From Candidatus Sabulitectum sp. (GTDB taxonomy: Bacteria > Fermentibacterota > Fermentibacteria > Fermentibacterales > JCC-6), in assembly GCA_023139045.1 (NCBI GenBank), contig JAGLOJ010000044.1, positions 23,274-87,273 of the forward strand: DNA of 64,000 bases, given 5' to 3'. The notes beneath the pieces are model-generated. The model searched no databases, was not told the origin of the DNA, and saw only the letters and a program-made list of their open reading frames with translations. The first letter of the stretch is position 1, and the number at the start of each line of letters is the position of its first letter. Shown here piece after piece: positions 31,213 through 64,000 of the stretch. The position numbers and the translations under genes were made by a program.

Positions 31213-31228
31213 GAAAGGAGTACCAGAC

Positions 31229-32029: not shown

Positions 32030-32041
32030 GAAGGTACAAAA

Positions 32042-32806: not shown

Positions 32807-32819
32807 GAAGGAGACTGGC

Positions 32820-33626: not shown

Positions 33627-33638
33627 AAAGGAGCTGGA

Positions 33639-34388: not shown

Positions 34389-34430
34389 TAAATCTTAAAG
34401 GCAGACTTAATCGACAACAAGGAGAAGTTA

Positions 34431-35567
34431 ATGAAAATGAAGCAGGAATTGATTCTTTTTACAGTTACGGCAGCAATCTTTTCGGGATGCGGAGAAAGCC
34501 CGCCGGAAGAAGTATCTGTAATAGAAACAGTGGAAGAAGTACCGGTTATACCCGATTCTGTGGCACAGTGGATTGAGTGGGCGGAAGAAAGCGGAGACGG
34601 GCTCTGGGAAGATGGCAGCCACAGGTTCATTCTGAAAGAATCCCTTGTTTACGGCGGACAGGAAATACCGCCTTTCTTCAATGTTGAAGGATTCGACTTC
34701 AAGGGTGATACACTGTTTGTAAGCGATCCTGCGGACCAATCTCTTGCTGCTGCCTCACTTACAACCGGAGAGCAGATCTGGAAAGTGGGGGAACAGGGAG
34801 GGGGGCCCGGGCATTTCAACGGTATCTGCGAAATTGCAGCAGGATCTTCCCGAATCGCTGTATGCGACATGGGCAACAACAGAGTTTCACTATTGAACTT
34901 TTCCGGTGAGTTTCTTACCGAAATTTCTATCCAGTGCCCGTTCGATGTCATGTGGAAAGGTGATACTTTATTTGTTCTCAGTCTTGCCGAAAGCAAACCT
35001 CTGAACATGTACAATGCAGATGGTGAGTTTCTTGACTCGTGCGGTGAATTGCCGGAAGAATTGGATATGCTTGCTTATTCAAACAGGCACCTCCACGGGG
35101 TAGTGGCTCCGAACGGTCATGTACTGGTTATTTCACGATTCCTTGCCGGAATATGGAAAATTGATCCTGCCACTGGTTCAACTGAATTGTTTTCTGAAAT
35201 TTCATTCCCCCAGGGTGAAATGGTAAATGATATTGCCAGTGGGTCATTTATGGTTCTCTCCAGAGACATCTTCATCGGCCCTGACGGAATGGTAAATGTG
35301 ATACTGCCTGTTTTCTCTGAAAATGGCGGGCCATTGTCTGACGGTAGTGAAATGCTTAAAACAACCGCAGTTCACAGGTACAACTGGGATGGTGAGTATC
35401 TGGACAGCTGGGTAATCGATGGTACTGTGGGTGTTGTGCTGATGCACAACGGGCAACTCTTCTCCGCAGACAGATATGCTGACGGTGTTGTAATTGATCA
35501 CGGTGTAATTCCGCTGAATCGGAGTGCAGAGCATGATATGAACGATGTGAGGTCGCAGTCCACATAA
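34431..35567 (+). CDS. NHL-repeat / six-bladed beta-propeller lipoprotein
   Basis: Lipobox FSGC. NHL-like repeats are present (GDTLFVSDPADQS...GGGPGHFNGICEIAA...IAVCDMGNNRV). It is a paralog of the genes at 57145 and 62689. Confidence 0.65.
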   Translation: MKMKQELILFTVTAAIFSGCGESPPEEVSVIETVEEVPVIPDSVAQWIEWAEESGDGLWEDGSHRFILKESLVYGGQEIPPFFNVEGFDFKGDTLFVSDPADQSLAAASLTTGEQIWKVGEQGGGPGHFNGICEIAAGSSRIAVCDMGNNRVSLLNFSGEFLTEISIQCPFDVMWKGDTLFVLSLAESKPLNMYNADGEFLDSCGELPEELDMLAYSNRHLHGVVAPNGHVLVISRFLAGIWKIDPATGSTELFSEISFPQGEMVNDIASGSFMVLSRDIFIGPDGMVNVILPVFSENGGPLSDGSEMLKTTAVHRYNWDGEYLDSWVIDGTVGVVLMHNGQLFSADRYADGVVIDHGVIPLNRSAEHDMNDVRSQST

Positions 35568-48189: not shown

Positions 48190-50400
48190 TTGAGTACTTC
48201 AAACGTAGATACAGCTCCTAAATTTGGCACTTTCCTTGGTGTTTTCACACCGAGTGTCTTAACCATCCTTGGTCTTGTTCTTTACCTCAGAATCGGATGG
48301 GTAGTAGGTAACCTCGGGCTGGCTCAGACCATCCTGATTGTGTTGATAGCAAGTTCCATTACATTCATCACCGGGCTGAGCGCCTCAGCAATAGCCACGA
48401 ATATTCGGATCGGTGTAGGTGGCGAGTACTACATGATCTCACACAGCCTCGGGCTTGAATTCGGGGGAGCTATCGGCATTCCACTGTACCTTTGCCGTAC
48501 TTTAAGCTTGACCTTCTACAGTTTCGGGCTGGCTGAGGGAGTTCAACTTATGATGACCAGGTGGCATGGGCCAATGGCTGAATATACCGTCCCTCTTATT
48601 GCAGCGGCCATCATTGTTGTTGTTACCACCCTCTCGGGGAAAAGTGCTTCACTGGCACTTAAGCTTCAGATACCAATAATGATTGCAGTAGCAGTATCAA
48701 TTGCTGCTTTGATAATCGGTGCTGTTTCCTCCGGTTTCAGGGCACCTGAAATGATCTCCACCTACAGAACAGCACCCCAGGGCTTCTGGTATGTCTTCGC
48801 AATATTTTTTCCTGCTGTAACTGGTTTCACCGCAGGAATCGGAATGAGCGGTGACCTGAAAAACCCCAGCAAAAGCATCCCCAGAGGAACACTTATTGCA
48901 GTTCTGACTGGAGCAATAATCTATGTTATTGTTCCCATCATTTTTTCAATCACCAACTCTGTAAGTTTTGAAGAGCTTGCAAAGCCTGGAATGAACGCCT
49001 GGACCACAACCGCTTTCCTTGGAAGTGTTCTTGTGTTTGCAGGAATGTGGGGGGCAATACTCTCATCGGCATTTGGCAGTGCTCTTACCGGTCCCAGAGT
49101 TCTGCAGGCTCTTTCTGAAGACGGCCTTGCACCCAGGCTCCTTTCCCGCCTTTCAAACAATGGGCAACCGACAGTTGCCACCTGGATAACAGGTGCTCTT
49201 GCTCTTACTGCCGTTCTTCTTGGTTCTCTGAATGCTGTGGCACAGTTTGTAACAATCCTGTTCCTTACTCTCTATGTTATCATAAATTTCAGTGCTGCAA
49301 TAGAAAAACTGGTTCGCGATCCGTCCTATCGACCCACCATAAATGTTCCCTGGTATGTATCAATACTTGGATCTCTGGGTGCAATATTTGTTATGCTGCT
49401 GCTTAATCCCTTCGCGTGTTTTATGGCCATCGTAATTGAAATGATTATTTACTTCATACTTCGCAGAAAAGCTCTTGGGAAACGGTGGGGTGATGTGAGG
49501 GCGGGTTTCTGGTTTGCCCTTACAAGACATGCCCTGATCAAACTTGAGGGGCACAGCATAGATCCCAGAAACTGGCGCCCCAACATTACTGTTTTTACAG
49601 AAGAGATTGAAGAAGAAATTGATATGGTTTACCTGGCAACCTGCTTCAACCAGAAGATGGGGGTTGTAAATGTCTGTCGGATATTCGAAGGGCGGCTCAG
49701 TAGAGAGAACATTGATATCAGAAAGATGGAATCATTCATGAAAAAAATTCTATCTGACCATAATCTTTCCGCCTTCTGCAAGGTAAATGTTTCACCTGAT
49801 TTCATTCAGGGAGCAATTGATGTGGCTCAGATAAACGGTATTGGGCATCTCCGTTCAAATACTGTGATGTTCGGATGGCCCAGTGATGATGTCAAGCTTG
49901 ATCTGATGCTTATGATCATGCGCACGATTTCCACCATAGGCAGAAGCACAATTATTACCAAATTGAAAGAGTTGAAGAACAGAGGCTTTTACAGACAGAT
50001 CGATATCTGGTGGGGCGGAATGGAAAACAACGGAGACCTGATGCTTCTTCTGGCGCACCTGCTGCGTATGAATCCAATGTGGAGAGAAGCGAGAATAGTG
50101 CTCAGGTCCATAGTGGAAGATCCTGCAAGGAAGACAGAAGTAGAACAGAGCCTGTCTGATACCATCAGCTCTGTAAGAATCAAGGCTGAAGGAGAGGTCA
50201 TTGTAAATGATTCCCGGGCCAGCATCGCAGAAGTAATCAGAGACAACAGCCGGCAGGCAGACATCACCTTCATGGGGTTGATGATACCTGAAAGCGGATA
50301 TGAGCACGAATACAGTAAAAAACTGATTGAACTTTCAGAAGGCCTTCAATCCGTCGTCTTTGTGCGAAACGCCAGTGAATTCTCCGGCAAACTCCTGTAA
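48190..50400 (+). CDS. APC-superfamily transporter (amino acid permease / cation-chloride-cotransporter-like) with a large cytoplasmic C-terminal domain
   Basis: About 12 TM helices fill the first 450 aa or so, and then a soluble domain of about 280 aa follows. This layout is like bacterial SLC12 homologs. Confidence 0.65.
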   Translation: MSTSNVDTAPKFGTFLGVFTPSVLTILGLVLYLRIGWVVGNLGLAQTILIVLIASSITFITGLSASAIATNIRIGVGGEYYMISHSLGLEFGGAIGIPLYLCRTLSLTFYSFGLAEGVQLMMTRWHGPMAEYTVPLIAAAIIVVVTTLSGKSASLALKLQIPIMIAVAVSIAALIIGAVSSGFRAPEMISTYRTAPQGFWYVFAIFFPAVTGFTAGIGMSGDLKNPSKSIPRGTLIAVLTGAIIYVIVPIIFSITNSVSFEELAKPGMNAWTTTAFLGSVLVFAGMWGAILSSAFGSALTGPRVLQALSEDGLAPRLLSRLSNNGQPTVATWITGALALTAVLLGSLNAVAQFVTILFLTLYVIINFSAAIEKLVRDPSYRPTINVPWYVSILGSLGAIFVMLLLNPFACFMAIVIEMIIYFILRRKALGKRWGDVRAGFWFALTRHALIKLEGHSIDPRNWRPNITVFTEEIEEEIDMVYLATCFNQKMGVVNVCRIFEGRLSRENIDIRKMESFMKKILSDHNLSAFCKVNVSPDFIQGAIDVAQINGIGHLRSNTVMFGWPSDDVKLDLMLMIMRTISTIGRSTIITKLKELKNRGFYRQIDIWWGGMENNGDLMLLLAHLLRMNPMWREARIVLRSIVEDPARKTEVEQSLSDTISSVRIKAEGEVIVNDSRASIAEVIRDNSRQADITFMGLMIPESGYEHEYSKKLIELSEGLQSVVFVRNASEFSGKLL

Positions 50401-50426: not shown

Positions 50427-51809
50427 TCATTTAATCTGCTGAAACAGTCTTGGAAGTTGCTCAATCAAATACAACGGCAGAGAGAGTAAATCACATTCAA
50501 CCTGCACAGTCGCGCCGGCTTGAGCAAGCCCGTGACTTATGTGCTGTAGAGATGGCGGGTTAAGATCGAAACGCACCGCTCTGGTGCATTTCTTCTGAGA
50601 AACAAACTGAAGTAGAGATTTTAGAGATCCGCTTTTCCCCGCCTTCACTTCAACCGGCACTATTGACTGGTCAAGCTGAATCAGGAAATCAACCTCTGCA
50701 TTTGCCGTTCTTCCCTCTCGCAACCAGTATGTAAGTGATTTAAAACCGGATGTTCTACCCATACTGCAAAGATGCTGGGCAATAAACTGTTCGGTGATTT
50801 TTCCCCTATTTATAAATGAAACAGTCTGTAACTCCTCCAGCGATATTCTGGTAACTCCGCACATGTGATTAACTAAACCGCAATCCAGAAAGTAGGGCTT
50901 GAATATGCGTTCATTAATTGTTGCTCCCAAAGGCAATCCCGACCCATCAGTGTGGTATGTCTTCACTATCAACTGGGCTTTCACCAGCAACTCAAGCGCT
51001 GTACGAACATCCCGCGCATGTGAATCAGGGCTGACTCGGAAATACTTGAACTTTTCACCAATTCCACGGGGCACATACTCAAATATCCTGTGGATCATCT
51101 GCAAAGCAGACCTGCGGGAATACTTGGCAAAGTCGTCCTTGTATGTCTCAGTGATAGAGGCATGAACATCTGTCACCTGGCTGAAATCCTCACCTGATTC
51201 GATGTACCGCTGTACAGCTTCAGGCATGCCTCCTGTAAGAAAATACTTCCTCTGCAGATCCAGAAGCCGGGCATGGGCTGTACCTGGAAAATCATCGCCA
51301 ATCTGATGCGTTCTCAAGAGGGCAAGAAGATCATCCTGAGACATTGCCTCAAGTACTTCTTCAAAACTCATAGGATAAAGGAAAAGGTATTGTATTCTAC
51401 CCACAGGCATTGAAATACTGTGTTTTGCCAGAGTAAACTCCAGAAGAGAACCAGCTGCAATCAGAGGGATATGAGGATGCTCCTCAAAGAAGTAGCGCAA
51501 AGATTGAATTGCTTCGGGAATGGCTTGAATCTCATCCAGAAATATGAGATCTTTTCCGGTGCGAATACTGCCTTTTCCGCAGAGATATTCCAACTCCTGG
51601 ATGATTCTACCAGGATCATTTGTTTTAAACACAGAAACTAGAGTGGGATGCCGCTCCAGATTGACTTCATGTAAATTAAGACCATTCTTTTCTGCGAATT
51701 GCCGAACCAGAGTTGATTTCCCAACCTGTCTTGCGCCGTGAATCACAAGTGGCTTTCTGGATGATGCTCCCAGCCAGCGGAATAGATTTTTCTCAGCAAA
51801 GCGTTTCAT
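50427..51809 (-). CDS. AAA-family ATPase with a DUF4143-type C-terminal domain (COG1373)
   Basis: P-loop IHGARQVGKSTLVRQ and Walker B LIFLDEIQ. Size is 460 aa. Confidence 0.7.
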   Translation of the reverse strand: MKRFAEKNLFRWLGASSRKPLVIHGARQVGKSTLVRQFAEKNGLNLHEVNLERHPTLVSVFKTNDPGRIIQELEYLCGKGSIRTGKDLIFLDEIQAIPEAIQSLRYFFEEHPHIPLIAAGSLLEFTLAKHSISMPVGRIQYLFLYPMSFEEVLEAMSQDDLLALLRTHQIGDDFPGTAHARLLDLQRKYFLTGGMPEAVQRYIESGEDFSQVTDVHASITETYKDDFAKYSRRSALQMIHRIFEYVPRGIGEKFKYFRVSPDSHARDVRTALELLVKAQLIVKTYHTDGSGLPLGATINERIFKPYFLDCGLVNHMCGVTRISLEELQTVSFINRGKITEQFIAQHLCSMGRTSGFKSLTYWLREGRTANAEVDFLIQLDQSIVPVEVKAGKSGSLKSLLQFVSQKKCTRAVRFDLNPPSLQHISHGLAQAGATVQVECDLLSLPLYLIEQLPRLFQQIK

Positions 51810-51912
51810 TCATCACCTCCTGAACTTGATATTGGCCATATCATACCCCTCTTTTCACCACTCAATGTACATATCATACCCTTATTATACACACTATGCA
51901 ATATTTCAGTTT
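51700..51912. repeat. Direct repeat copy 1, about 213 bp. It covers the 5' coding end, the start codon and the upstream region of the COG1373 ATPase gene.
   Basis: It is near-identical to 53670..53884, with a handful of mismatches read by eye. Confidence 0.85.
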
Positions 51913-52223
51913 TGCTGAGTCTCGATCTTTCATCCCATTGTCCAAAAACAGTAGAAGCAAGACGACTACAGTATCTGCACTGCTCACTTTAGATCTGTCA
52001 TCAAATTCAAAGGCTATGATCACTTGAGGCAGGAACCGATCTCGCAAGGGAGGGTACAAAGAAATGCCTTTGCAACTACGGCAGATCTGGTTTCCTGATT
52101 CTTGAACAGCTCAGATCCAAAGGGTATAGAGTTCCCTTGAGCTCTTCACAGCTCAGTGCTTTAAAGGCTTCATTCTTGAATGGTTGCGGCAACGACTTAC
52201 AGATTGTGTCCAAATTAGCACTT

Positions 52224-53576
52224 TCAATATCCAAAAGCCTGGGCCCCAGCAGGAGCATCTTCATTTCTCAGTAGCCACTTCCATGCTGGAATTATATCTA
52301 TCTTACCACTGTATGTTTCAATTGTTTCTTCATCATGAAGAGAAATGACAGTACTCTTTGAAAGCTTCAGCTCTTCCATTGCCTCACTAAGTGCCCGAAT
52401 TTCTCGATTTCGAGTTTTCAAGTTTGTTAAGTCTGCACAAACTTGGATGAGTTCAAAAACAGTGTTTGTTTCCGGATCACCTGTAATGAAATCAACTTCA
52501 TGTTTGCTGTTAGTGATATAGTAACTGATCGAGGCATCACGACGGAAGTAAAATCGTTTTCGCAGATTCAGAAAAACACAGTTTTCTAGTCTCGATCCCA
52601 GATTTGAGACTCCAGCAGATGAGACAGAAAAAGACAAACCTGGATCGATGGTGTAGATCTTCCTGGGGTTAACCTCTCTAACTCTTAAAGATCTGTTGAA
52701 TACAGAAATTGGAAACAAAAGAAAAGCGTCCTCAAAATGTGCAACAAGGTTATACAGCATTTCTTTACCTACTGAGATTCCTCTTGATTTGAAATCGTAA
52801 AAAACTCTATTAACTGAAAACAAGGAACCAGAGTTTTGCAGAAGCATTCGGGCGAAAGATCTAACTGCATTGATATTCTTTATTGAGTACCGCTCAATAA
52901 TGTCTCTTACTAAAACCAGCTCAACATAATCCTGTAAAACTTGATTTCTTTGATAATCATTCATTGATTGAATCCCTGGAAAACCACCCTGGTCAAGATA
53001 CTTCTTGAATAGATCCTCCATATCAAAAACTGTTTTACCCGGAGGATATTCTGGTGGCAGTTCTATTTCATGGAAAAGCAGGAATTCTTCAAAACTCAAC
53101 GGAAACAGCTCCCTTGCAAATCCCCTTCCTCTGAATTCAGTTGCCACTTCTGTAGAAAGCAATTTTGCTGAAGAACCTGTAACATAAAGACTGGCACTGG
53201 GATTATCCGTTATCCTCCGGGCGAATCGACTCCATCCTGAAATACTCTGAATCTCATCTAAAAACAGATGAAAGCTTCCCTCCCTGGCTTGTGGACTAAT
53301 CCGAAAGAAAGCATCCAGCAGATCTGACAGAATCCCAGATCCGTATGGATGTAATCTGTCGTCTTCAAGATTCAAGTATAAAATCGTTGAAGGATCCACT
53401 CCTTCTGAAATCAGTTTGTTTATGTGTTGAAACAATCGAAAAGTTTTACCTGTTCGCCTCATTCCAATAATAACCGAGGCCATGCCAGCCACTGGACTGA
53501 TATCCAAAATGCGAGGCCTGAGATCAGGAATCGGCCGAAACAACGAATCTGCTACGAATTGTTCTATGTGATTCAC
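52224..53576 (-). CDS. AAA-family ATPase with a DUF4143-type C-terminal domain (COG1373), a divergent paralog
   Basis: P-loop GMRRTGKTFRLFQ and Walker B HLFLDEIQ. Size is 450 aa. Confidence 0.7.
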   Translation of the reverse strand: MNHIEQFVADSLFRPIPDLRPRILDISPVAGMASVIIGMRRTGKTFRLFQHINKLISEGVDPSTILYLNLEDDRLHPYGSGILSDLLDAFFRISPQAREGSFHLFLDEIQSISGWSRFARRITDNPSASLYVTGSSAKLLSTEVATEFRGRGFARELFPLSFEEFLLFHEIELPPEYPPGKTVFDMEDLFKKYLDQGGFPGIQSMNDYQRNQVLQDYVELVLVRDIIERYSIKNINAVRSFARMLLQNSGSLFSVNRVFYDFKSRGISVGKEMLYNLVAHFEDAFLLFPISVFNRSLRVREVNPRKIYTIDPGLSFSVSSAGVSNLGSRLENCVFLNLRKRFYFRRDASISYYITNSKHEVDFITGDPETNTVFELIQVCADLTNLKTRNREIRALSEAMEELKLSKSTVISLHDEETIETYSGKIDIIPAWKWLLRNEDAPAGAQAFGY

Positions 53577-53669
53577 AATGTTTCCTTTCTATAAGGAAAC
53601 ATTACCTCAATTGTATACCTCTGTCAAGAGAACATGTACAAATATGAGACTGTAAGAACCTCTGTCAGA

Positions 53670-53884
53670 TTGCCGAACCAGAGTTGATTTCCCAACCTGT
53701 CTTGCGCCGCGAATCACAAGTGGCTTTCTGGATGATGCTTCCAGCCAGCGGAATAGATTTTTCTCAGCAAAGCGTTTCATTCATCACCTCCTGAACTTGA
53801 TATTGGCCATATCATACCCCTCTTTTCACCACTTGATGTACATATCATACCCTTATTATACACACTATGCAATATCGCAGTTTC
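53670..53884. repeat. Direct repeat copy 2. It contains a 5' remnant of about 37 codons of a COG1373 ATPase gene (53670..53780, minus strand) plus the duplicated upstream region.
   Basis: It aligns with 51700..51912. The remnant reads MKRFAEKNLFRWLEASSRKPLVIRGARQVGKSTLVRQ and then loses homology. Confidence 0.85.
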
Positions 53885-54133
53885 GAATCGGGATCAATTC
53901 AAGCCTTGCTGGATACCGATCTTTCTTCACGCAAATCAGAAACAGGCAGAAACAAGACCACAACATTAATTTCGCTATATTTCAGGTATGCCGGTTTATT
54001 TATTTGTAGTTCTTCTTTCCCCTATACCAGAATACGAGTTTTACATATTTTGCCTATCAAGCTCCATTCAGATTCAAGTAGAAGCCGTTTGCAGAGTAGA
54101 TCTGAATTGAAAAACAGCAGTACCACTTCCAAC

Positions 54134-55825
54134 ATGAGGAAACTCTGGCAAGACCGCAGGCTGCTTTTTCGCACCCTGACATTCCTCAAGCCATGGCTCA
54201 AATGGCATGCTCTTGGGCTTTTCCTCACAATTCTGGCTGCTGGTCTTGCTCTGGTTCAACCCTGGGTGACCAGGCTTCTTATTGATAAGGTTCTAATAGA
54301 TGGCAATACAGACCTGCTTCTTAAAATCTGCTTTGCCTATTTAGGAGCTGTACTTCTTGGTTCCCTCGTAGGTATGGCAATGTCGATTCTGTTCTCCTGG
54401 GTTGGCCAGAGCGCAGCAATAGACTTGAAGATGGCCCTGTACAAAAAGTTGAATACCCTGTCCATGGCCTTTACCGGCAGGAAAAGGGTGGGAGAACTGA
54501 TGGCGGGGTTTACCAGTGATATCCCCGTTATGCAGAGTTTGTACTCTTCAACCCTTTCAAGTACAATCAGTGAGGTAATCAGGTTCTTCGTAGTACTGGC
54601 AGTAATGATTTCTATTAACCCGCGACTTACCCTCCTGGCTGTACCATCCATTCCCCTGTTCGCCATAATTATTGCATTGGCAGGAACCATGCTGAAAAAG
54701 GCCAGTGCTGAAGTTCAAGAGAAAAGAGCTTTCTTCACTGCTACGCTTCAGGAACAGCTTTCAGGTCTCCGCACATCTGCTGCCTTCAATCTTGAGAACC
54801 GGGAAAGCGTTAAGTTCAAGAACTCCATGACAGATCTTATGCACTCAAGTATTCGCCTTACAGTTAAAGGCTTTGTAATGAATGCCGGTTCCCTGCTGGC
54901 ATCAACTACTCTCATTCTTGTGATATGGCTGGGTGGAAAAGAAGTAATTCAGGGCAGGATGGACGTTGGTGTACTGATTGCTTTCATCAGCTATTTCGGT
55001 ATGCTGTTTGGCCCTGTAGGCTCCATTGCCGGAATCGCCACACAGATTCTGAAAGCTATGGGTGCCGCAGAGAGGGTATTCACAGTCATAGATACAGAAC
55101 CCGCCGTGACAGAGCTTCCCGGTGCAGCAGAACTCACTGGTGTTAAGGGTAAGGTTGAATTCAAAAACATCAGTTTTTCCTACTCGGAAGAGTCTCCAGT
55201 TCTGAAGAATTTCAACGAGGTTATCCATGCAGGTGAAACAGTAGCCCTGTCCGGTGACAGCGGATCAGGCAAAACCACTCTGATATCTCTGTTGCTCCGT
55301 TTCTTCGATCCGGATAGCGGTGAAATTCTGATTGATGGAAACTCAACAAAAAACTTCACCCTTGAATCCCTCAGGAGAAACATCGGCGTGGTTTTTCAAG
55401 ATCCGTTCCTTTATCACTGTTCCGTGGCACAAAACATTCTTCTTGGCAGTCCTGAAGCATCAATGGACGAAATTGAAAAAGCGGCAAGGGCAGCCCATGC
55501 CCATGAGTTCATCACAACCTTGCCTGATGGTTACGATACTCTTGTCGGGGAACGGGGCAGCAGTTTATCCGGTGGGCAGGTTCAGAGGCTTGCCCTTGCC
55601 AGAGTATTCCTGAAGGATCCACCCATCGTTGTACTTGATGAAGCCACCAGCGCGCTTGACAGTAAAAGCGAGTCCAAAATACAGGATGCTGTTTCTCATC
55701 TTTTACAGAGCAGAACATGCCTTGTTATTGCTCACAGGCAATCTACTGTGGAGTCTGCTGACAGGGTAGTATCAGTTCCGCTTTTATCGGGCAATAACGA
55801 CATTACTCCCCTTGCTGCCAAATGA
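54134..55825 (+). CDS. ABC exporter, a fused transmembrane domain and ATPase (MsbA-like). The start is chosen at MRKLWQ.
   Basis: Six-TM ABC transmembrane domain, Walker A LSGDSGSGKTTLISLL, signature LSGGQVQRLALAR, and Walker B IVVLDEATSALD. Confidence 0.85.
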   Translation: MRKLWQDRRLLFRTLTFLKPWLKWHALGLFLTILAAGLALVQPWVTRLLIDKVLIDGNTDLLLKICFAYLGAVLLGSLVGMAMSILFSWVGQSAAIDLKMALYKKLNTLSMAFTGRKRVGELMAGFTSDIPVMQSLYSSTLSSTISEVIRFFVVLAVMISINPRLTLLAVPSIPLFAIIIALAGTMLKKASAEVQEKRAFFTATLQEQLSGLRTSAAFNLENRESVKFKNSMTDLMHSSIRLTVKGFVMNAGSLLASTTLILVIWLGGKEVIQGRMDVGVLIAFISYFGMLFGPVGSIAGIATQILKAMGAAERVFTVIDTEPAVTELPGAAELTGVKGKVEFKNISFSYSEESPVLKNFNEVIHAGETVALSGDSGSGKTTLISLLLRFFDPDSGEILIDGNSTKNFTLESLRRNIGVVFQDPFLYHCSVAQNILLGSPEASMDEIEKAARAAHAHEFITTLPDGYDTLVGERGSSLSGGQVQRLALARVFLKDPPIVVLDEATSALDSKSESKIQDAVSHLLQSRTCLVIAHRQSTVESADRVVSVPLLSGNNDITPLAAK

Positions 55826-55976
55826 GACTGTCGCTGGACAGATTATGATGCGTGAAGTGGAGCCCTTTTCAGACAGGAGCTATCTATTGCGGAAAAATAG
55901 AGGTATTGACACTCGAAAGTGGGGGGGGGTATATACGGTGGTGCTATTCACTAATTAACTTTTGGAAAGGTGAGAT

Positions 55977-57152
55977 TTGCCAGAGATGAAAATTGATTAT
56001 TATCTGCTTGCCGTAAGTACCTTACTGCTTTCCTGCAGTAAAGGGTATGAAGAGATGGATCCGGTCGCCTATCAGATAATTGAAAATCCTTCGGAAGTCA
56101 CTGTTGAACAGATAGCTGATATTCCATACATGTTTGCACATGATGGTTTGTTAATTCCTGGCAGCATTGATTCCTCTGATGATGTTATAGTTCTGGGGTT
56201 CTGTGGTGATTCTACGACTGCCGGTATATCAGCTTATGACTGGGAAGGAAAACTGCTCTGGTCAACAGAATATGGTACATATGGATATGCCTCAGCCGTA
56301 TGTGTTGATGGAAACAGGGTACTCTTTTCTGTTACTGATGAGATTCCGGTTCTTGATTCTGCCACAGGTGAAATGATTGAAACAATCAGCGCAGAAGGGC
56401 TCAGTGATATTCTTGTACTACCCGAGGCACCCGATGGACAGTCTATGCCAGACTTTAGACTCGCTCAGGGGATGGAAATACAAAGCGAGATTATGCTCTG
56501 GAATAAGCCGGAGTGTGATTTAAATTTCTCATATTGTGGATTCTTATCTGATTTGCACTGTTCCTTCCAAAGGTATCTCAGGGTTACACGAATCGATGGA
56601 TTATGGTATATCGGCATGACAGAGGGACATTACGAGCGCCTCAGTATTTATAAGGTACCGGATTTCCAGCATTCATTGCGACCAAAGGTATTCGATATTG
56701 CTCTGACAGACACATCGGTCGTCGCTATTCTTTCGTTTAGAGACATGGTGATGGAGTTTGCTTTTGATGGCAGGCTTATCAGAACGACATATTTTGGTCA
56801 TGAGCTTGAAGGTCCTATAAGTTTCACATACGACAGTTTTATGGGTAGTACAATTTTCAGGTATTTAATCGCTGATATTGATACCGATGACGAAGGCTGT
56901 ATTTACCTGCTTTACTCCGGTTACGGGGTTGGTCAAAACGGTAACGCCGAGATTTGGAAGGTGAATACTGTTTCCCTTACTGCTTCTATGGCCAGGCTGG
57001 ACCATTCCGCAGTGGCTTTCACGATTTGCGGCAGCAGAGCGGCCGTTGTGGAGCAGCAGCATGAGCCTGGCGAGGGTGATGAAATAGTATTAACCGGAAC
57101 CCCTTCGATTCATGTTTATCAGATAGAATGGGAGGACAGTACAAGTGTCTGA
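55977..57152 (+). CDS. Beta-propeller-like lipoprotein, a distant paralog of the NHL lipoproteins
   Basis: Lipobox LLSC. Composition is beta-rich. Its end overlaps the next lipoprotein gene. Confidence 0.55.
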   Translation: MPEMKIDYYLLAVSTLLLSCSKGYEEMDPVAYQIIENPSEVTVEQIADIPYMFAHDGLLIPGSIDSSDDVIVLGFCGDSTTAGISAYDWEGKLLWSTEYGTYGYASAVCVDGNRVLFSVTDEIPVLDSATGEMIETISAEGLSDILVLPEAPDGQSMPDFRLAQGMEIQSEIMLWNKPECDLNFSYCGFLSDLHCSFQRYLRVTRIDGLWYIGMTEGHYERLSIYKVPDFQHSLRPKVFDIALTDTSVVAILSFRDMVMEFAFDGRLIRTTYFGHELEGPISFTYDSFMGSTIFRYLIADIDTDDEGCIYLLYSGYGVGQNGNAEIWKVNTVSLTASMARLDHSAVAFTICGSRAAVVEQQHEPGEGDEIVLTGTPSIHVYQIEWEDSTSV

Positions 57153-58257
57153 TTCTTCTATTTTCTTCCTGCTGTGCATTATTCTTTGTACTGCCGGGCT
57201 ATCTTGCCAGTCAAATGTTGACAGCGATGTTTCCGTTTGCGAAGAACTGATCGAGTGGAGAGAATGGCTCGAAGCGTCCAGTCCTCCTGAAGTAGAAACT
57301 GACATGCCGTTTTACATTCCTTCCGATACGATACTGTCACCGGAGACGTGTGAGTATGAGTATTTCATGATAGAGAGTTTTGTGATTGATGACAACAGGA
57401 TATTTCTCAGCGATGGAAAATCCAGCACTCTTCTAGCTTTTAGCTTTGATGGGGAACTTCTCTGGAAAACCGGTGGCAAGGGAGAGGGTCCCGGTCTCTT
57501 CAGTGGTATAGGGAATATAGCCTGCAAGGGTGATACTCTCGCAGTATGTAATCATGCTGTAGGTCGCGTAGATTATTTCGACTGTAACACTGGTGAGTGG
57601 ATATCATCCATATCAATACTATGGCCGTATGACCTTTGTTTTCTTCCGAATGGTAATCTGGTTGTTGTAAGTCTAATGCAGAATGATCTTGTTACAGTAT
57701 TTACGCCATCAGGGGAAAAAGTTTTTAGCTCAGGTTCATGGAATGCACCAGGAGAGGAAGCCTTCCATTTTTTGTTCTCAGCAGGCAACAGGAATATGCG
57801 TTCAACTCTCGTATGTGACAGCGTACTGGCGGTCAATTCCTATTTTTATAACTGGTGTCAATTATACAATACCAACTCTGGAGAATTGATCAATGCGTTC
57901 AAACGTGAACTGCCTTTTCCCGAAATGGAGTTTGAAGAAATAAACGGGGTGTTTGTCGGGAAAATCTATGCAATTGATATTGCGTCGTTCGGGAGTATGA
58001 TTGCGATTTTACATAGGCCTCCAGAGGATAGTTGGGATATTTCATCAAGGTATGATGAAATTCCTTTTTATGAAATCGATTTTGCAATGGTTGATATCTG
58101 GGATACTGAAGGAGAGTACATAGGCAGTTTTGCCTTCCCTCGTGGGGTAGGACGTATCCTCTGGCACGATGGAATAATGTACGGTGCAACTGATGGGTCA
58201 GGAGAGCTGATTCGATATACTGAGATCACTTTCGATTCAGAAAGAAATCTGGAGTAA
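57145..58257 (+). CDS. NHL-repeat / six-bladed beta-propeller lipoprotein
   Basis: Lipobox GLSC. The motif block DNRIFLSDGKSSTLLAFSFDGELLWKTGGKGEGPGLFSGIGNIACKGDTLAVCNHAVGRV is parallel to those in the 34431 and 62689 proteins. Confidence 0.65.
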   Translation: MSDSSIFFLLCIILCTAGLSCQSNVDSDVSVCEELIEWREWLEASSPPEVETDMPFYIPSDTILSPETCEYEYFMIESFVIDDNRIFLSDGKSSTLLAFSFDGELLWKTGGKGEGPGLFSGIGNIACKGDTLAVCNHAVGRVDYFDCNTGEWISSISILWPYDLCFLPNGNLVVVSLMQNDLVTVFTPSGEKVFSSGSWNAPGEEAFHFLFSAGNRNMRSTLVCDSVLAVNSYFYNWCQLYNTNSGELINAFKRELPFPEMEFEEINGVFVGKIYAIDIASFGSMIAILHRPPEDSWDISSRYDEIPFYEIDFAMVDIWDTEGEYIGSFAFPRGVGRILWHDGIMYGATDGSGELIRYTEITFDSERNLE

Positions 58258-59007
58258 ATTCTGAAGTTTCCTGGGTTCTCAACCTTGGGAACGGTGTTCT
58301 GGCCCATGGTACAAGTTTTCCTCCAGCAGCAAATGTATGTCCGAAGCAGCCACCAAGACAGTACCTAAACAAATCACACTGTGAATCTCGGTAAATCGTC
58401 TGTCTGTTGCTGTCAGCATACCTTACATCGTGTAAGACCGAAAAATTTTCCCACGACCTGACACAGAGAAGGAACAGAGGGTCCAGTCGCTTTCGCAGAT
58501 CATCTATAGTCTGCTGTAAATCGCACATTCATCACTTCTTTTGTGTCTGATTTCATAATTACGGATCTGCCGTGTTTTTTCTCTTGATTCTTTCCCAATC
58601 ACGAGTTTCTTCCACCCAGGCAGCTCACCAAACAATTTGCTGCACACAACTTCTCCCCGGGAATCATTCATAATTACTGCTTTATCAATCTCTCTTTTAA
58701 CCCCATCGTAGTAGAGCAGATAAACTGGTTCTATCTCCAGCATCGCCGGGAACTTCACCTGAACCGGTGTCAACGGTTGGTTAAATTTTCCGATATCATA
58801 AAACCCTGTATATCCTGTGCCATGAATTGTACATATTGCAGTTTCGATTTAGAGCCTCAATTCCTCTCTTTGTTGAAATCAATCATTCTTCCCTGAATTC
58901 GGAAACAGCAGAATCAAGACAACAGCATCAATTTCGTTATACTTTAAAGGATGTCGATTTATTTATAAATCCTCTTTCTCAATATCAGAATGTGAGGTTT
59001 ACATCTT

Positions 59008-60102
59008 TTGCCAGTCAAAACCCGTTCAGAAGCGCTATTATTAACAGTAATTATCTCAATGCTCTGTATGCTGGCATGCGATTCAGCGACCGAAATGAGT
59101 GTTGTGGAACAAAGGCATCTTGTAGTTGTTGATTCAATTGGATCACTGTATGGGAATGATTATGAAATGTTCGGAAATATAAATGGTGCTTATTTTGTTG
59201 ATGATTCTACATTCGTTGTCCTGGACAAGGGGTACAATGAGTTGCGTGTTTTTGATAGAGAATGCAATTTCATAAAGACTGTTAATTGTCAAGGAAATGG
59301 TCCTTGGGAGTGTCAGGATGCAGCATATTTGTCTTCACTTGACAATACTATAGCTGTATTTGAATTTCTCATGCCACCAAGAGCTGTATTTTTTGATAGT
59401 GCAGTTAATCCCAAACGCTCAGTTGTTCTATCTGGATACACTGCTTTAATGGAACCATCGTTAGTGGATTCATTAACAATCATTGGGAGTGTCGGAAGTT
59501 TTTCAGAACAAAATGGGAATCAATTCGCCGGTATTGATGTGTGCTCTTGGAGCACAATAACAGGTGAAAAGTTATGTGAATATTTCTCAAATTCGATTCA
59601 AATAGATTCTAGAGAAGGTTTATACAGTAGACTGGTCAGCTTAGAACTCACTATTGCTGCATCAAGTAGCGGTTATGTATACGTAGCCCCAAGTAAGAAT
59701 GATTACAAGATTCTTATATACTCATCAGAAGGAATGTTGATAGATTCAATTTATCAAACTCACGAACGCGCAATGCGAAGTCAGGAGGAGATACTAGCAG
59801 AGTGGGAGTGGCGAAAATTGAGAGATATTCATTTGGGAGATTGGATACCATCTGAATACGAACTTGAGGTTACGCAACTTCAAGTTCAAGATTCATTAAA
59901 GTACTTGTGGGTCAGTCATGGATCATATTTCAATCCATCATTTGATGTATTTAACCTACTTGGTGATTTAGAATTTACATGTACTGTTGAAGGATTGCCA
60001 GAAAATGAGATTATTCGATTTGGAATAAATGACAATGGCATATTGGCGTACACTGATTACTGTGCTACTTATCCAAGATTGTATATCCTGGAATTTCGAT
60101 AG
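59008..60102 (+). CDS. Beta-propeller-like lipoprotein paralog. The gene is visibly AT-richer than the rest of the window.
   Basis: Lipobox MLAC. The motif YFVDDSTFVVLDKGYNELRVFDRECNFIKTV follows the NHL-like blade pattern. Confidence 0.55.
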   Translation: MPVKTRSEALLLTVIISMLCMLACDSATEMSVVEQRHLVVVDSIGSLYGNDYEMFGNINGAYFVDDSTFVVLDKGYNELRVFDRECNFIKTVNCQGNGPWECQDAAYLSSLDNTIAVFEFLMPPRAVFFDSAVNPKRSVVLSGYTALMEPSLVDSLTIIGSVGSFSEQNGNQFAGIDVCSWSTITGEKLCEYFSNSIQIDSREGLYSRLVSLELTIAASSSGYVYVAPSKNDYKILIYSSEGMLIDSIYQTHERAMRSQEEILAEWEWRKLRDIHLGDWIPSEYELEVTQLQVQDSLKYLWVSHGSYFNPSFDVFNLLGDLEFTCTVEGLPENEIIRFGINDNGILAYTDYCATYPRLYILEFR

Positions 60103-60189
60103 CGTAATCCTGCCTTGCCAAAGTAAATCTAGAGTTTCGCTTGACTGTGGGCTCAGGAATCAGACATTCACGGGTGTACCGTCCTGACC

Positions 60190-60292
60190 TCTCTCATCTT
60201 TGCAGAACATGCCTTGTTATTGCTCACAGGCAATCTACTGTGGAGTCTGCGGACAGAGTAGTATCAGTTCCACTGTTATCGACTATCGGCGC
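60190..60292 (+). repeat. Duplicated 3' fragment of the ABC exporter gene. It is a copy of 55697..55795.
   Basis: The fragment is tctcatcttt...cagaacatgccttgttattgctcacaggcaatctactgtggagtctgc.gacag.gtagtatcagttcc. It encodes RTCLVIAHRQSTVESADRVVSV and has only a few mismatches against the source. Confidence 0.8.
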
Positions 60293-60357
60293 AGTCACAG
60301 GTCTGAGTTGAACCGCCATCAATGACCTCCGAAGTAGTTCACTGATCAATTCTTGAT

Positions 60358-61104
60358 TCATTGATCAGATCGATTGAGTTTCATAAGAGAAGCTGTAATC
60401 AGAAAAGCACTCCAAAGAAATGGATAGATATTTTGTGCAATCCCGCTAAAGTTGGGTAGCTCTCCTATGATTTCAATTCCGGAAGACGGGGGGGGAAGGT
60501 GTCCTGCTGCGACATTACTGTATCCAATTCCAACAGGAAACAATGCGTTGCATACTGTTTTTGCTATTGCAGGATTCGAACCCAGAGAACTCCTGAAGAA
60601 GACAATTAGCGTAATAATAGGAAAAACAATATTGAAAGCCGGGAAAAACTTGTTATGAAAAAATGAGTTGCCAGCAATTGAAAATGCTGCCAATGCGATG
60701 GTTACCTGAATGATTCCAAATGCGGCTAAAAATAAATCAGCGGGAAAGTAGCCAGAGTACAATGGAAAGATCAAGCATGGTACGAAAAAAAGAATCACCG
60801 CCACAACAAGCCCCACTTGGGTAAGTTTGACAAACAGATCAAAATAGTATTTTTGCCTGCTCACTGGTGCAGTCACCCACATACGAATTCTTCCGCTTTG
60901 CAGTTCTTCGCCAATGCTCTTGTAAGTTGTTACCGAAAAGTAAAAAGAAAGGGCAAATATTACTGCAAACAACTGCCCGCCAATACCCAGATAGCAGCCT
61001 TCACTGCCTGCGCGCAAATCCATACCAACAGCAAGGAACATCAAAAGTGAATACCAGATTAGAGTCCCCAGCACGGAACTCCGGGTGTTTCTACGCCCCA
61101 GCAT
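60358..61104 (-). CDS. ABC-2-type permease, locus 2, second permease
   Basis: Six-TM protein. The motif RMWVTAPVSRQKYYF is shared with its neighbour. Confidence 0.6.
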   Translation of the reverse strand: MLGRRNTRSSVLGTLIWYSLLMFLAVGMDLRAGSEGCYLGIGGQLFAVIFALSFYFSVTTYKSIGEELQSGRIRMWVTAPVSRQKYYFDLFVKLTQVGLVVAVILFFVPCLIFPLYSGYFPADLFLAAFGIIQVTIALAAFSIAGNSFFHNKFFPAFNIVFPIITLIVFFRSSLGSNPAIAKTVCNALFPVGIGYSNVAAGHLPPPSSGIEIIGELPNFSGIAQNIYPFLWSAFLITASLMKLNRSDQ

Positions 61105-61808
61105 CAGTACCCTCTCTTATTTACCGCAACGAGAAGCACGCCAAAAACTCCCAGAGACCATAATGTGATATATAAAAAGTCTGACATCGTAATCACCGAT
61201 GGACTGATCAGCGGGAATACGCCATTGTACACAGATCGAATCCCGATTGCAATGGGCATTATGCTGTAAAGGACTCTCTTATGCTGCTGCATAATACCAG
61301 GGTCCAGCTGCATTACCAATAATATCCATGGGATAAATATCATTAAGGGAAGAGATAGATTCCCTCTGACTGATATGGAAACAAGAAATACAAACAAAAC
61401 CAGTACCACTGTTGTTGAGGCAACACCTCCTACTATCAAAAAGTAATTGACGGGGAGCATTCGATACTTCAGAAAGAAAAGCAAGACAACGATAGCAGCC
61501 CAGATAGTACTGCTCAGAACTACCCTTAGCAGTATCTTTTTGATGCTGGAGATGAACAGTTGTGCTTTAGATACTGGAGCAGTAACCCACAACCTCATAC
61601 GATTTGTGCTGATTTCCTCGTTGAACATAGAACTCACAAGAGAAGCGGTATAAGAAACAAAAGCCAGCATTACTATTTCCTGCAAAAATGCAAGAGATGA
61701 CGGATGCCTGCTGGATAAAACCTTAAATAACAATGCAGCGGAATACAGAAGAAAAAAGAACATTACAATCACCCTGTGCTTTTTATCGAGACTTCTGCTG
61801 AGCATCAT
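61104..61808 (-). CDS. ABC-2-type permease, locus 2, first permease
   Basis: Six-TM protein with the motif RLWVTAPVSKAQLF. It overlaps the ATPase gene stop. Confidence 0.6.
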   Translation of the reverse strand: MMLSRSLDKKHRVIVMFFFLLYSAALLFKVLSSRHPSSLAFLQEIVMLAFVSYTASLVSSMFNEEISTNRMRLWVTAPVSKAQLFISSIKKILLRVVLSSTIWAAIVVLLFFLKYRMLPVNYFLIVGGVASTTVVLVLFVFLVSISVRGNLSLPLMIFIPWILLVMQLDPGIMQQHKRVLYSIMPIAIGIRSVYNGVFPLISPSVITMSDFLYITLWSLGVFGVLLVAVNKRGY

Positions 61809-62647
61809 TGACCAACCGTTGCAAAGTAGAAGTCTTCCATGGTTACCGAAGAGACAGTGCTGTAATCAATTGGAAAGCTGTTCAGTGTCTGTTTTTCAAT
61901 AATGACAAAAGAATCGAAACTGAAACTAACCTTAGACTCTGGTATGTTCAATTCCTGCTGTATTTTTCTGGATAGTTTCCGGTAGTTTGAGAGAGATTCA
62001 AACTCTCCGGTGGCTATATTTCGTCCATCATGAATTATAAGGAAATTGCCCTGGTGCATTTCTACTTCATGCACCCTGTGCGTACTCTGCAGCACGGTAG
62101 TACCGGACTCGCAGAGCGTCTTTATCCGCTTCCGAACCTTTCTGATATTTATAGGATCCAAACCCTCCAATGGCTCATCCAGTATCAGGAATTCTGGTTT
62201 ACCGGAAAGCATCAGGGAAAGGAGCATCAACTGTTTCTCTCCTTTTGATTTCCCCTTATAGTACTGGTTGAGAAGATCCTCGCAGCCAAAATAATCGAAC
62301 ATGTCAGCTACATCAGAAAAGTTAATATCTTCTCTGTACCGCCCATACTCCTCAGTCATATCGGCAGTATTGCAATATACCGGCAGAATCACAGACTCAG
62401 GAAGATACCTTACAAACTTACGGGATTCAGGTTTCCGGCAGTCCACACCATTAATTAGAATAGTTCCACTGTCAGCAGAAATCAGATTCATTGCGATATT
62501 CATCAGGGTGGATTTACCCGCTCCATTACTCCCGAGAAGAATAGTGTTTTCACCTTTTCTTATATCACAGGAAAAGCCCTCGCGAAGACCTCTTGTTCTT
62601 CCGTAATACTTTTTCAGGTTTTCAGTTCTCAAGGCAAATCCACTCAT
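61805..62647 (-). CDS. ABC transporter ATP-binding protein, locus 2
   Basis: Walker A LGSNGAGKSTLMNI, signature SKGEKQLMLLSLML, and Walker B FLILDEPLEGLD. Confidence 0.85.
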   Translation of the reverse strand: MSGFALRTENLKKYYGRTRGLREGFSCDIRKGENTILLGSNGAGKSTLMNIAMNLISADSGTILINGVDCRKPESRKFVRYLPESVILPVYCNTADMTEEYGRYREDINFSDVADMFDYFGCEDLLNQYYKGKSKGEKQLMLLSLMLSGKPEFLILDEPLEGLDPINIRKVRKRIKTLCESGTTVLQSTHRVHEVEMHQGNFLIIHDGRNIATGEFESLSNYRKLSRKIQQELNIPESKVSFSFDSFVIIEKQTLNSFPIDYSTVSSVTMEDFYFATVGQ

Positions 62648-62688
62648 AAATAAATCTCCAAGCTGTAAGCTGTCTCTAAGCTCCTTCT

Positions 62689-63780
62689 CTACACAAACGC
62701 TGGAATAATTTCATAAATCCTGATGAACCCTTCTAAGCAATCAATGGCATAAATGTAATCACCGTTGATTTCGATTGTACCGCAGCATGTTTCCGGGGCA
62801 AGAACCGTATCGCAATATCGCCCATCCAGTGTGTATCGGTCAATCAAACCGATACTGGCGATGCGAGGCATGTCGCCCCGGCAAGTACTCAGAGTTTTAT
62901 CAATGGTAACTACAGGTAAGAGAACATAAAGCAGACTATCCGAAGAACTGCAGATATCGTTGCAGTGTATATACAGTATCCCTCCTTCGTTAGCAGGAGG
63001 AGTCAGGGGAGTATTACGGAAAAAACTTGTTTCAATCTGCTCATTCTTTAAATCATAAATCGTTATAACGCTTTCGTAAAATGATCCCACTGCAATTCGG
63101 GAATCCGGTAATGGAGTCACATATAAATTTCGGTTAGAGTAAACCACATTCTGCTCAAGAGTTGTTTCCCACTCACCAAATGCATCAATTTTCTCAAGGG
63201 TAACAGTATGATACAGATTAATCAGTTTTCCCTCTGCAAGACTCAGTACCACCAATACGGTATCATTTACCACAGTCAGGTCGTATGGAGTAGCAATGCT
63301 GATATCGCCCTGATAATCTCCGTGCTTATCAAGCACCGTAATACGTGAGTTTTGTTGATTATTCACAAATACTCTGGAGTTTGAAACTGCAATATGGGTT
63401 ATTCCTGAAAAATGCCCCGGTCCTTCCCCAGGTTCTCCAAATTTCCAGATGAGTTCATTTGTAGCAGCATTCAAACAGACAACACTCTCTGTAGAAGAAT
63501 CAGTCACGAAAAGAGTGTCACCGGAAATTGCAATATCCACCGGGCTGTAAAACAATGCAAATGCATCTCCACCAAGTGTTGAAACTTCCCTGAGAACAAC
63601 CTGTCTCTCAGGACTGTTTACCCACAACCCCTCGTCACTTGCCTGAGCCCACTCCTTCCATACAGCTAATGTGTACTCAGCAAGTGAGGTGTTTCCGCCC
63701 TGCGCTCCGGCAAATTCAGCATCTGATGTACAGGACAAAATAGCAAATAAACAGGATAACAAATAAATAGGAAACTTCAT
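62689..63780 (-). CDS. NHL-repeat / six-bladed beta-propeller lipoprotein, the locus 2 partner
   Basis: Lipobox ILSC. The motif block GDTLFVTDSSTESVVCLNAATNELIWKFGEPGEGPGHFSGITHIAV is nearly collinear with the 34431 protein. Confidence 0.65.
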   Translation of the reverse strand: MKFPIYLLSCLFAILSCTSDAEFAGAQGGNTSLAEYTLAVWKEWAQASDEGLWVNSPERQVVLREVSTLGGDAFALFYSPVDIAISGDTLFVTDSSTESVVCLNAATNELIWKFGEPGEGPGHFSGITHIAVSNSRVFVNNQQNSRITVLDKHGDYQGDISIATPYDLTVVNDTVLVVLSLAEGKLINLYHTVTLEKIDAFGEWETTLEQNVVYSNRNLYVTPLPDSRIAVGSFYESVITIYDLKNEQIETSFFRNTPLTPPANEGGILYIHCNDICSSSDSLLYVLLPVVTIDKTLSTCRGDMPRIASIGLIDRYTLDGRYCDTVLAPETCCGTIEINGDYIYAIDCLEGFIRIYEIIPAFV

Positions 63781-64000
63781 CTCTCACCTCTTTTTTAAAT
63801 AGTTCTGTCTTGTACGATGTGCAATAACTTTGGCATAATTCACCCGAATCCAACGACAACTGCATCAGCGTTTGTATTTGATGGAAAATTTCACATCTGC
63901 ACTAGTGTAATAGCACAGTAGTACAATCTTGTCAACCGGCATGAAGAATTGCTGGCCTGGGTGAAGAAGGGAATGTCTGTAACTCTGCTGAATGGCAGAA

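Follow-up and report, generated by a model that had tools for sequence, protein, structure and literature searches.

The locus described here lies in a stretch of 64,000 nucleotides (nt), the window, taken from a metagenome-assembled genome (MAG) of Candidatus Sabulitectum sp. in the phylum Fermentibacterota (assembly GCA_023139045.1, contig JAGLOJ010000044.1, positions 23,274 to 87,273 of the forward strand). It is built around an intact gene for an MsbA-like ABC exporter, termed exporter E, whose conserved 3' end occurs twice. The first occurrence, copy A, is in place within exporter E, and the second, copy B, lies in the same orientation behind three lipoprotein genes that follow the exporter (lipoprotein-1, -2 and -3) and just ahead of a convergent operon encoding ABC-2 permeases (Table 1). 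Between lipoprotein-2 and lipoprotein-3 there is a spacer, and where it ends a second piece of exporter-like sequence begins, a relic of the exporter leader termed leader', which runs into the start of lipoprotein-3. As argued below, leader' and copy B may well be the two ends of a former additional exporter copy, termed E', the interior of which was lost and a lipoprotein gene left in its place.

A repeat scan of the window, in which chance repeats amount to 20-27 nt at 70-80% identity, recovered a direct repeat with 76 of 80 nt identical (55710-55789 versus 60202-60281) that contains a perfect 49-nt core (55710-55758 = 60202-60250), and no further pair of this kind was found for the exporter 3' sequence across the 64 kb. 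If the hexamer TACAGA is dropped from copy A, 10-13 nt more can be aligned leftward (TCTCATCTTT), giving homologous tracts of about 55687-55789 and 60185-60281 that differ by a 6-nt in-frame deletion in copy B. At the protein level this indel reads SHL-LQS-RTC versus SHL-C-RTC, and the translation of copy B, ...SHL-C-RTCLVIAHRQSTVESADRVVSVPLLS, is matched by tblastn to exporter residues ~519-552 with E = 8e-11. To the right of ...TTATCG the copies are unrelated, copy A continuing into GNNDITPLAAK and a stop (tail A) and copy B into TIGAVTGLS and a stop (tail B). The near-identical duplicate of the exporter 3' end reported in a preliminary description of the locus is thus confirmed, the positions given there (55697-55795 and 60190-60292) being close to the computed tracts. 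The same description had the last 30 or so exporter codons occurring twice, which holds for the conserved end of the protein but not for the last 11 codons and the stop, which fall outside the repeat. An 8-mer (CGCTTGAC) common to both copies at 36/44 nt upstream of the repeat is out of frame, some 0.08 matches of this sort being expected by chance, and is not claimed.

Exporter E was itself suspected of having been truncated by an insertion, as its alignments to PDB structures end at '...ADRVV' (around residue 546 of 563), where Sav1866 runs on for ~30 residues; this was rejected, more than 50 homologues ending there too. With few exceptions the homologues P0002-P0052 (54-94% identical) are 554-569 amino acids long, and they have in common the C-terminus ...IAHRxSxVxxADR[VI][VI]x[VI]PLLS followed by 0-12 unconserved residues. 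Exporter E (100% identical to P0001) ends accordingly in ...ADRVVSVPLLS plus its tail, so that the short C-terminus is a family trait and the gene is not truncated. The right edge of the A/B repeat coincides with the end of the family-conserved coding sequence. In the nearest relative, the locus L004 with a 94% identical exporter, the gene also carries tail A (...PLLSGNND...) and is followed by an unrelated 124-amino-acid gene; exporter E with tail A is therefore regarded as the native gene. Its true start may be TTG 54107, the NCBI annotation placing it at 53906. As observations on the family itself, these exporters lack the ~30 C-terminal residues found after the H-loop strand of Sav1866/MsbA-type transporters, and their tails are hypervariable, differing even between proteins that are 90% identical.

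The four differences between the copies (55759 T/G, 55765 G/A, 55780 G/A and 55783 T/G, copy A first) change the codons GCT/GCG, AGG/AGA, CCG/CCA and CTT/CTG. All four are synonymous third-position changes in a tract where only 27% of all possible single changes would be silent (p ~0.005 for 4/4), which argues that copy B diverged inside a translated and selected exporter gene, unlike a duplicated target site decaying neutrally. The same differences bear on a diversity-generating retroelement, in which copies A and B would be a template/variable repeat pair at the exporter C-terminus. A near-identical pair of ~100 nt with one copy at a gene 3' end has the right general form, but the mismatches (T/G, G/A, G/A, T/G) are not adenine-specific and all are silent, and no reverse transcriptase was found in the window by Pfam scans or by tblastn with a group II intron reverse transcriptase, a query that could miss a divergent retroelement enzyme; this explanation can practically be set aside.

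With the indel counted, copy B has 90% identity to copy A, its best match, ahead of the exporters of L012 (86%) and L004 (84%). Besides copy B, no exporter homology was found in 55826-60184, even at E < 1, and the 56-amino-acid open reading frame (ORF) that spans copy B (60141-60311) is without a Pfam match. What remains is a start-less 3' piece with in-frame homology to the family, from which the rest of the gene, including transmembrane domain, Walker A/B and signature motif, is gone, in agreement with the preliminary description, which had called the second copy a gene remnant and not a functional ORF. It is hence rather probable that copy B is the non-functional 3' relic of an additional, once intact and translated exporter copy E'. 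An intact paralogue, E2, 93% identical to exporter E, is present on another contig in both MAG assemblies (P0141/P0145; contigs of 12.5 and 12.8 kb), and as it falls into the same genome bin the exporter family is taken to be multi-copy. Copy B is not a piece of E2, since it equals exporter E residue for residue where E2 differs; the E2 C-terminus, RTCIVIAHRQSTVESADRIVEISVNNSSL, is unlike it.

Retention of copy B for a function, either as antisense RNA to the exporter mRNA 3' end through read-through of the ABC-2 operon or as a substrate for RecA-mediated loop-out, has in its favour that 80 nt at 95% identity with a 49-nt perfect core are long enough for RNA pairing or homologous recombination, and that no terminator-like site was found at copy B to separate it from the end of the ABC-2 operon. 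The fragment is, however, conserved in no relative examined, Rfam returns just two tRNAs in the whole window and leaves leader and copy B unmatched, and the changes fit a coding history and not an RNA structure, so that a function is regarded as very improbable.

The second relic was first noticed when DNA upstream of the exporter of another related locus, L028, matched two places in the window, namely the leader of exporter E and leader'. Aligned to the exporter leader, leader' reaches a Smith-Waterman score of 119 (300 shuffles: 19.5 +/- 2.1, maximum 27), and nhmmer gives E = 1e-51. Apart from leader' and a weak trace at 51903-51973, a profile made from exporter leaders matches nothing but sequence upstream of the exporters of the window, L004 and L028/L029. 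Two blocks are kept in all exporter leaders, the -10-like TTTnGnTATAyT and ATAyCAGAATGyGAG, and both are retained in leader'. Furthermore, leader' contains a GAGG (Shine-Dalgarno) 10 nt upstream of TTG 59008, the start of lipoprotein-3, and this TTG and the next seven codons (MPVKTRSE) still lie inside the leader homology, where the exporter-leader frame reads (L)PIKLHSD. The homology ends at 59030, precisely where the hydrophobic core of the lipoprotein-3 signal peptide (ALLLTVIISMLCMLAC) begins. The TTG start gains support from the fact that without it the protein has no signal peptide. From this arrangement leader' would be expected to drive lipoprotein-3, and the dead exporter's leader and start codon appear to have been put to use by the incoming lipoprotein gene. 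Copy B follows leader' at a distance of 1.15 kb in the same orientation.

Pairwise identity among the three lipoproteins is just 14-21%, so that the array is not the product of recent tandem duplication. Lipoprotein-3 stands out by a GC content of 37.5% (29% at third codon positions, GC3), the lowest of any 1.1-kb stretch of the window (mean 46.1%, sd 3.1%), compared with 47.7% GC and 47.7% GC3 in exporter E. Its relatives (42-51% identical) have unrelated N-termini and signal peptides and occur in unrelated contexts, the nearest (47-49%) occupying the interval from rpsG to fusA of the str operon region in two other Fermentibacteraceae MAGs. The body of lipoprotein-3 is thus probably a foreign, horizontally acquired insert within an exporter shell. 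The preliminary description had assigned exactly three lipoprotein genes to the interval between the copies, which proved incomplete, as the 750-nt gap between lipoprotein-2 and lipoprotein-3 (58258-59007) also contains a decayed ORF pair and the leader relic. About 300 nt of the spacer (58527-58830) show 83-85% nucleotide identity to a segment in an unrelated chromosomal context (L061 5197-5561), which differs by a 59-nt indel and lies 1.4 kb from a DDE transposase, and this segment ends where leader' starts. The spacer ORFs match nothing in Pfam, NCBIfam, PADLOC or PHROG and have two partial homologues only, one of them beside the DDE transposase; the segment could be the decayed remains of a small gene, or else a short sequence that is repeated or mobile.

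Leader', lipoprotein-3, the following 82 nt and copy B are, in the interpretation judged the more probable one here, the shell of the former exporter copy E'. The order and orientation of leader' relative to copy B argue that an exporter gene was duplicated and not a 100-bp target. In addition, the relics stand at 90-95% identity (3' end) and 73% (leader) to exporter E, and the L004 orthologue stands at 92% and 76%, which agrees with one common age of the relics, and a single source of roughly species-level divergence can explain both; the assignment of the two pieces to the same former gene is drawn from these sequence comparisons. The events may be pictured as follows. The interior of E' (~1.6 kb) would have been lost and a lipoprotein gene come to stand in its place. 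Either a single replacement was responsible, or an E'-lipoprotein(-E'') arrangement underwent deletions by which the leader was joined to a lipoprotein gene lying downstream. Lipoprotein-3 would thereby have taken over leader', the ribosome-binding site, the TTG start and the first 8 codons, and the last ~32 conserved codons of E' would have been left behind it as dead sequence. The setting would be a variable island where recombination at conserved gene ends, or close to them, brings about the gain, duplication and deletion of genes. Order and mechanism of these steps are our reconstruction.

Table 1. Features of the exporter locus and of related loci. Positions are those of the window unless a locus is named.
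Feature	Position	Strand	Remarks
Exporter leader / promoter-proximal region	53872..54072	+	Conserved upstream of the L004 and L028/L029 exporters
MsbA-like ABC exporter E	54134..55825	+	563 amino acids, intact; Pfam ABC_membrane + ABC_tran
Copy A	55687..55789	+	Conserved 3' end of exporter E, codons ~519-552, in place
Lipoprotein-1 + lipoprotein-2	55977..58257	+	Downstream of exporter E; overlap 8 nt
Spacer	58258..58832	-	575 nt; decayed ORF pair 58504-58773 and 58226-58528
Leader'	58833..59030	+	Relic of exporter leader; 148/204 identical to 53872-54072
Lipoprotein-3	59008..60102	+	6-bladed beta-propeller-like; body 59031-60102
82-nt segment	60103..60184		Between lipoprotein-3 stop and copy B; no match anywhere
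Copy B	60185..60311	+	Relic exporter 3' end: homology 60185-60281, core 60202-60281, tail B 60282-60311
Upstream genes	48190-50400		Nitroreductase, then SLC12-type transporter (to which the coordinates refer)
ATPase1	50427-51809	-	AAA_14/DUF4143
R1	51698..51912	-	ATPase1 5' 112 nt + 103 nt upstream, in place
Leader''	51922..51975	+	Weak third leader trace directly after R1; aligns to leader and leader'; marginal
ATPase2	52224-53576	-	AAA_14/DUF4143
57-amino-acid N-terminal ATPase fragment	53607-53780	-	Between ATPase2 and exporter
R1'	53669..53883	-	Relic of R1, 209/215 identical; 57-amino-acid ORF = N-terminal ATPase fragment
Convergent operon	60358-63780	-	Two ABC-2 permeases, ABC ATPase, lipoprotein-4; then Fer4/Pyr_redox, Complex-I-like genes
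Lipoprotein-3 relative, str region	L035 8001-9092		
Lipoprotein-3 relative, str region	L036 8001-9089		

Several points tell against this interpretation and must be kept in mind. The former existence of E' is read from two relics only, an intact E' at the shell position was found in no genome examined, and neither the 82 nt before copy B nor the interior of the shell holds an exporter trace. Among the homologues and related loci examined there is likewise no exporter that ends in tail B, TIGAVTGLS (PLLSTIGAVTGLS). The synonymous-only pattern comprises four sites, a small sample, and would also be expected if orthologous alleles of two strains had been joined by an insertion with anchor duplication. 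Leader' (73%) and copy B (95% over 80 nt) could go back to different events, E2 might be a co-binned strain variant instead of a true paralogue, and the pairing across the 49-nt core has the support of the MAG assemblies alone.

Such an insertion is the most serious competing explanation, albeit an unlikely one, and it corresponds in essence to the view taken in the preliminary description. A DNA on which an exporter 3' fragment and tail A were joined to the lipoprotein genes would have integrated into the 3' end of an exporter gene, through a Campbell-type single crossover of circular or linear DNA or by homology-facilitated illegitimate recombination, the illegitimate end lying upstream of the anchor, thereby duplicating an anchor of ~100 bp. 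Copy B and tail B would then be the original 3' end of the recipient gene, and leader' an unrelated older relic within the insert. The direct repeats flank the block exactly, as this requires; silent differences are equally expected between functional alleles of donor and recipient; copy B, tail B and the 46-nt gap to the convergent ABC-2 gene make a plausible native gene end; and the neighbouring R1-ATPase2-R1' arrangement has the same bracket form. Against it, the body of exporter E and tail A are both common to L004, so that the gene with tail A looks native and contiguous, and the pre-insertion state, exporter-tail B-ABC-2, occurs in no relative examined. Moreover, a separate and unexplained exporter copy would be needed for the leader' fusion, in the right order and orientation beside copy B.

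The preliminary description had viewed the duplicate as the footprint of an insertion that carried target-site sequence with it, or alternatively of recombination between exporter paralogues. The former is not borne out, given the lack of transposase, integrase and terminal inverted repeats, the silent-only differences and the separate 5' leader relic. No transposase was found among the ORFs of 55826-60184 (Pfam, NCBIfam, PADLOC, PHROG and tblastn with a DDE transposase) and no integrase domain in that interval, the ORFs scanned within 36-64 kb likewise yielding neither, and terminal inverted repeats at the interval ends score 18 versus 16.5 +/- 2.4 for shuffles. Direct repeats that bracket accessory genes, one of them being a gene 3' end, do resemble a transposon target-site duplication or an attL/attR pair. 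In contrast to these, the repeat is ~100 bp long, imperfect and coding-constrained, and has no transposase, integrase or terminal inverted repeats with it. A transposon or insertion-sequence target-site duplication was accordingly rejected (a repeat of ~100 bp at 90-95% identity versus a short exact duplication of 2-14 bp), as was an integrative element with attL/attR in a gene 3' end, for which no site-specific recombinase was found. Recombination between exporter paralogues comes close to the evidence, in that the family is multi-copy and copy B diverged under coding selection.

The soundness of the assembly was examined with an independent assembly (Logan contigs, k=31, run SRR13892605). 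Two of its contigs equal window 55729-60231 (L034) and 60221-64000 (L002), both at 100% identity. The ends of the two contigs are the first and last 31-mers common to copies A and B, as a genuine two-copy repeat predicts in a k=31 graph. The first spans the passage from the right part of copy A through tail A into lipoprotein-1 as well as that from lipoprotein-3 through the 82 nt to the left edge of copy B, and the second that from the right part of copy B through tail B into the ABC-2 genes. In a second MAG (KAR40_ tags, 133.5-kb contig) exporter (MCK5132177), spacer ORF (...180) and lipoprotein-3 (...181) carry consecutive accessions, which implies the same gene order, and the spacer ORF there is 99%, not 100%, identical. 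An assembly artefact, that is, a two-strain chimera or a collapsed or expanded repeat, might be suspected from the MAG source, from a copy difference of 5% that is within the range of strain variation, and from the fact that the 49-nt core is not bridgeable by k=31 Logan contigs from a run that may equal the reads of the MAG. This explanation is nevertheless held to be highly unlikely, as every unique junction was recovered at 100% in the independent assembly with contigs ending as predicted, the second MAG has the same gene order with 99%-identical proteins, and only ~10 nt are common to the exporter and the left edge of copy B, too few for a k-mer join. The possibility of misassembly raised in the preliminary description was thus addressed without reads and found no support, and the intact second exporter gene in the same arrangement, which by that account would have spoken against a remnant, was found in none of the related loci examined.

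Relics of gene ends that arise by displacement are known from orphaned 3' regions of Rhs, from CdiA orphan modules and from type VI secretion system (T6SS) effector-immunity arrays of Vibrio cholerae, for which recombination with its anchor in conserved sequence, possibly of the homology-facilitated illegitimate type, has been proposed as the mechanism (PMC5361080). The exporter locus resembles them in that a conserved gene is followed by acquired genes with the 3' piece of an old copy pushed downstream, the direct repeat forming a bracket, and copy B has the traits of an orphan fragment in such arrays, being a conserved piece downstream of the main gene in the same orientation. It differs in having no toxin tip or immunity gene and one relic instead of an array, in that the conserved end belongs to an ABC exporter with a 9-residue tail, and in the 5' leader relic that was kept and re-used by the incoming gene. 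A C-terminal displacement array of a polymorphic toxin was for this reason rejected, the tails measuring 9-11 residues and the downstream genes being beta-propeller lipoproteins without toxin or immunity genes.

Campbell-type integration and homology-facilitated illegitimate recombination place insertions beside homologous anchor copies, or flanked by them, without a transposase, mechanisms reportedly treated by de Vries & Wackernagel and by Prudhomme et al., both in 2002. The leader relic at this locus is not explained by these mechanisms alone. The nearest likeness is that to ordinary pseudogene fragments, for copy B is truncated and start-less, closely resembles an intact paralogue and is situated where gene content varies and candidate defence genes occur; from birth-and-death pseudogene fragments of a multi-copy family in an island there is no essential difference. 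The locus is therefore an ordinary gene relic of birth-and-death turnover and no new mechanism or element.

For annotation it follows that the 56-amino-acid ORF and the 31-amino-acid call on the opposite strand are best treated as a pseudogene fragment. The locus as a whole is to be read as a variable island in which candidate defence ATPases, diverse beta-propeller lipoproteins and ABC-2 operons surround a multi-copy exporter, and on a small scale it cleanly illustrates how, in an uncultured phylum, an incoming gene can capture a promoter and a start codon. A more far-reaching idea, which is speculative and doubtful, is that in these Fermentibacteria the two conserved ends of the exporter, its leader (~200 nt) and the final ~100 nt of its coding sequence, serve as natural homology arms by which foreign cargo is swapped in. 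If this were true, cargo genes would gain the exporter promoter, ribosome-binding site and start codon at once, the lipoprotein signal peptide would be a chimera of MPVKTRSE from the leader and its own hydrophobic region and lipobox, and the A/B repeat would also permit loop-out or strain-to-strain exchange of the lipoprotein block.

The surroundings of the exporter agree with such an island. At L028, whose exporter is 87% identical, both outer flanks are syntenic with the window, and between them there are only the exporter, a 48-amino-acid peptide and a radical-SAM enzyme (SLC12 - exporter - peptide - radical SAM - ... - Fer4/Complex-I-like genes), so that all else around the exporter is variable content. 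In other relatives the exporter has wholly different neighbours. No second exporter relic was found in 15 related loci, which leaves a recurrent, dedicated mechanism unsupported. The locus is a rearrangement hot spot, or variable island, beside the exporter.

Upstream of the exporter, both ATPases match the PADLOC candidate defence family PDC-S01 (E = 3.6e-145 and 3.6e-97), which fits the island setting and places exporter E next to candidate defence genes. R1 and its relic R1' bracket ATPase2, the second-lowest-GC gene of the window (GC3 34%), and at L004 the ATPase1-exporter arrangement is unduplicated, with a decayed ATPase2 on the far side. Leader'' scores 33 versus 18 +/- 2.5 for shuffles, none of 500 reaching it. 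A 12-nt motif, ATAT[CT][GT]CAGTTT, is common to three junctions (51901-51912, 53872-53883 and 58833-58844), and it is at this motif that the R1/R1' homology ends and the leader/leader' homology begins. TATCG is present at either end of the exporter module (53873-77 and 55785-89). Both motifs were noticed post hoc, could reflect microhomology or chance, and are not built on here.

Some further observations concern the relatives of the exporter. At L028 5277-6895 and L030 763-7116, close exporter relatives adjoin genes for small peptides, radical-SAM/SPASM, PqqD and methyltransferase proteins, an assembly resembling pathways for ribosomally synthesized and post-translationally modified peptides (RiPPs). 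These neighbours suggest that members of the family may export modified peptides, a proposal based on gene content; exporter E of the window has no RiPP-like neighbours. In another metagenome (L027 1039-3187) the neighbours of a 90%-identical exporter include a group II intron reverse transcriptase and a BrnT toxin gene, a further sign of mobile or variable neighbourhoods for these exporters. On L041 10001-10974 (JGI Ga0255383_1125) a forward stretch encoding exporter residues 1-198 gives way to residues 552-458 on the opposite strand; either the gene has been rearranged or the contig end is chimeric. Elsewhere in the window, an operon of the same type as the convergent one occupies 30394-35567, with an ABC ATPase, four tandem paralogous ABC-2 permeases and a beta-propeller lipoprotein that is 32% identical to lipoprotein-4; its permease paralogues (31229-34388) are 63-85% identical over repeat segments of 50 to 300 nt.

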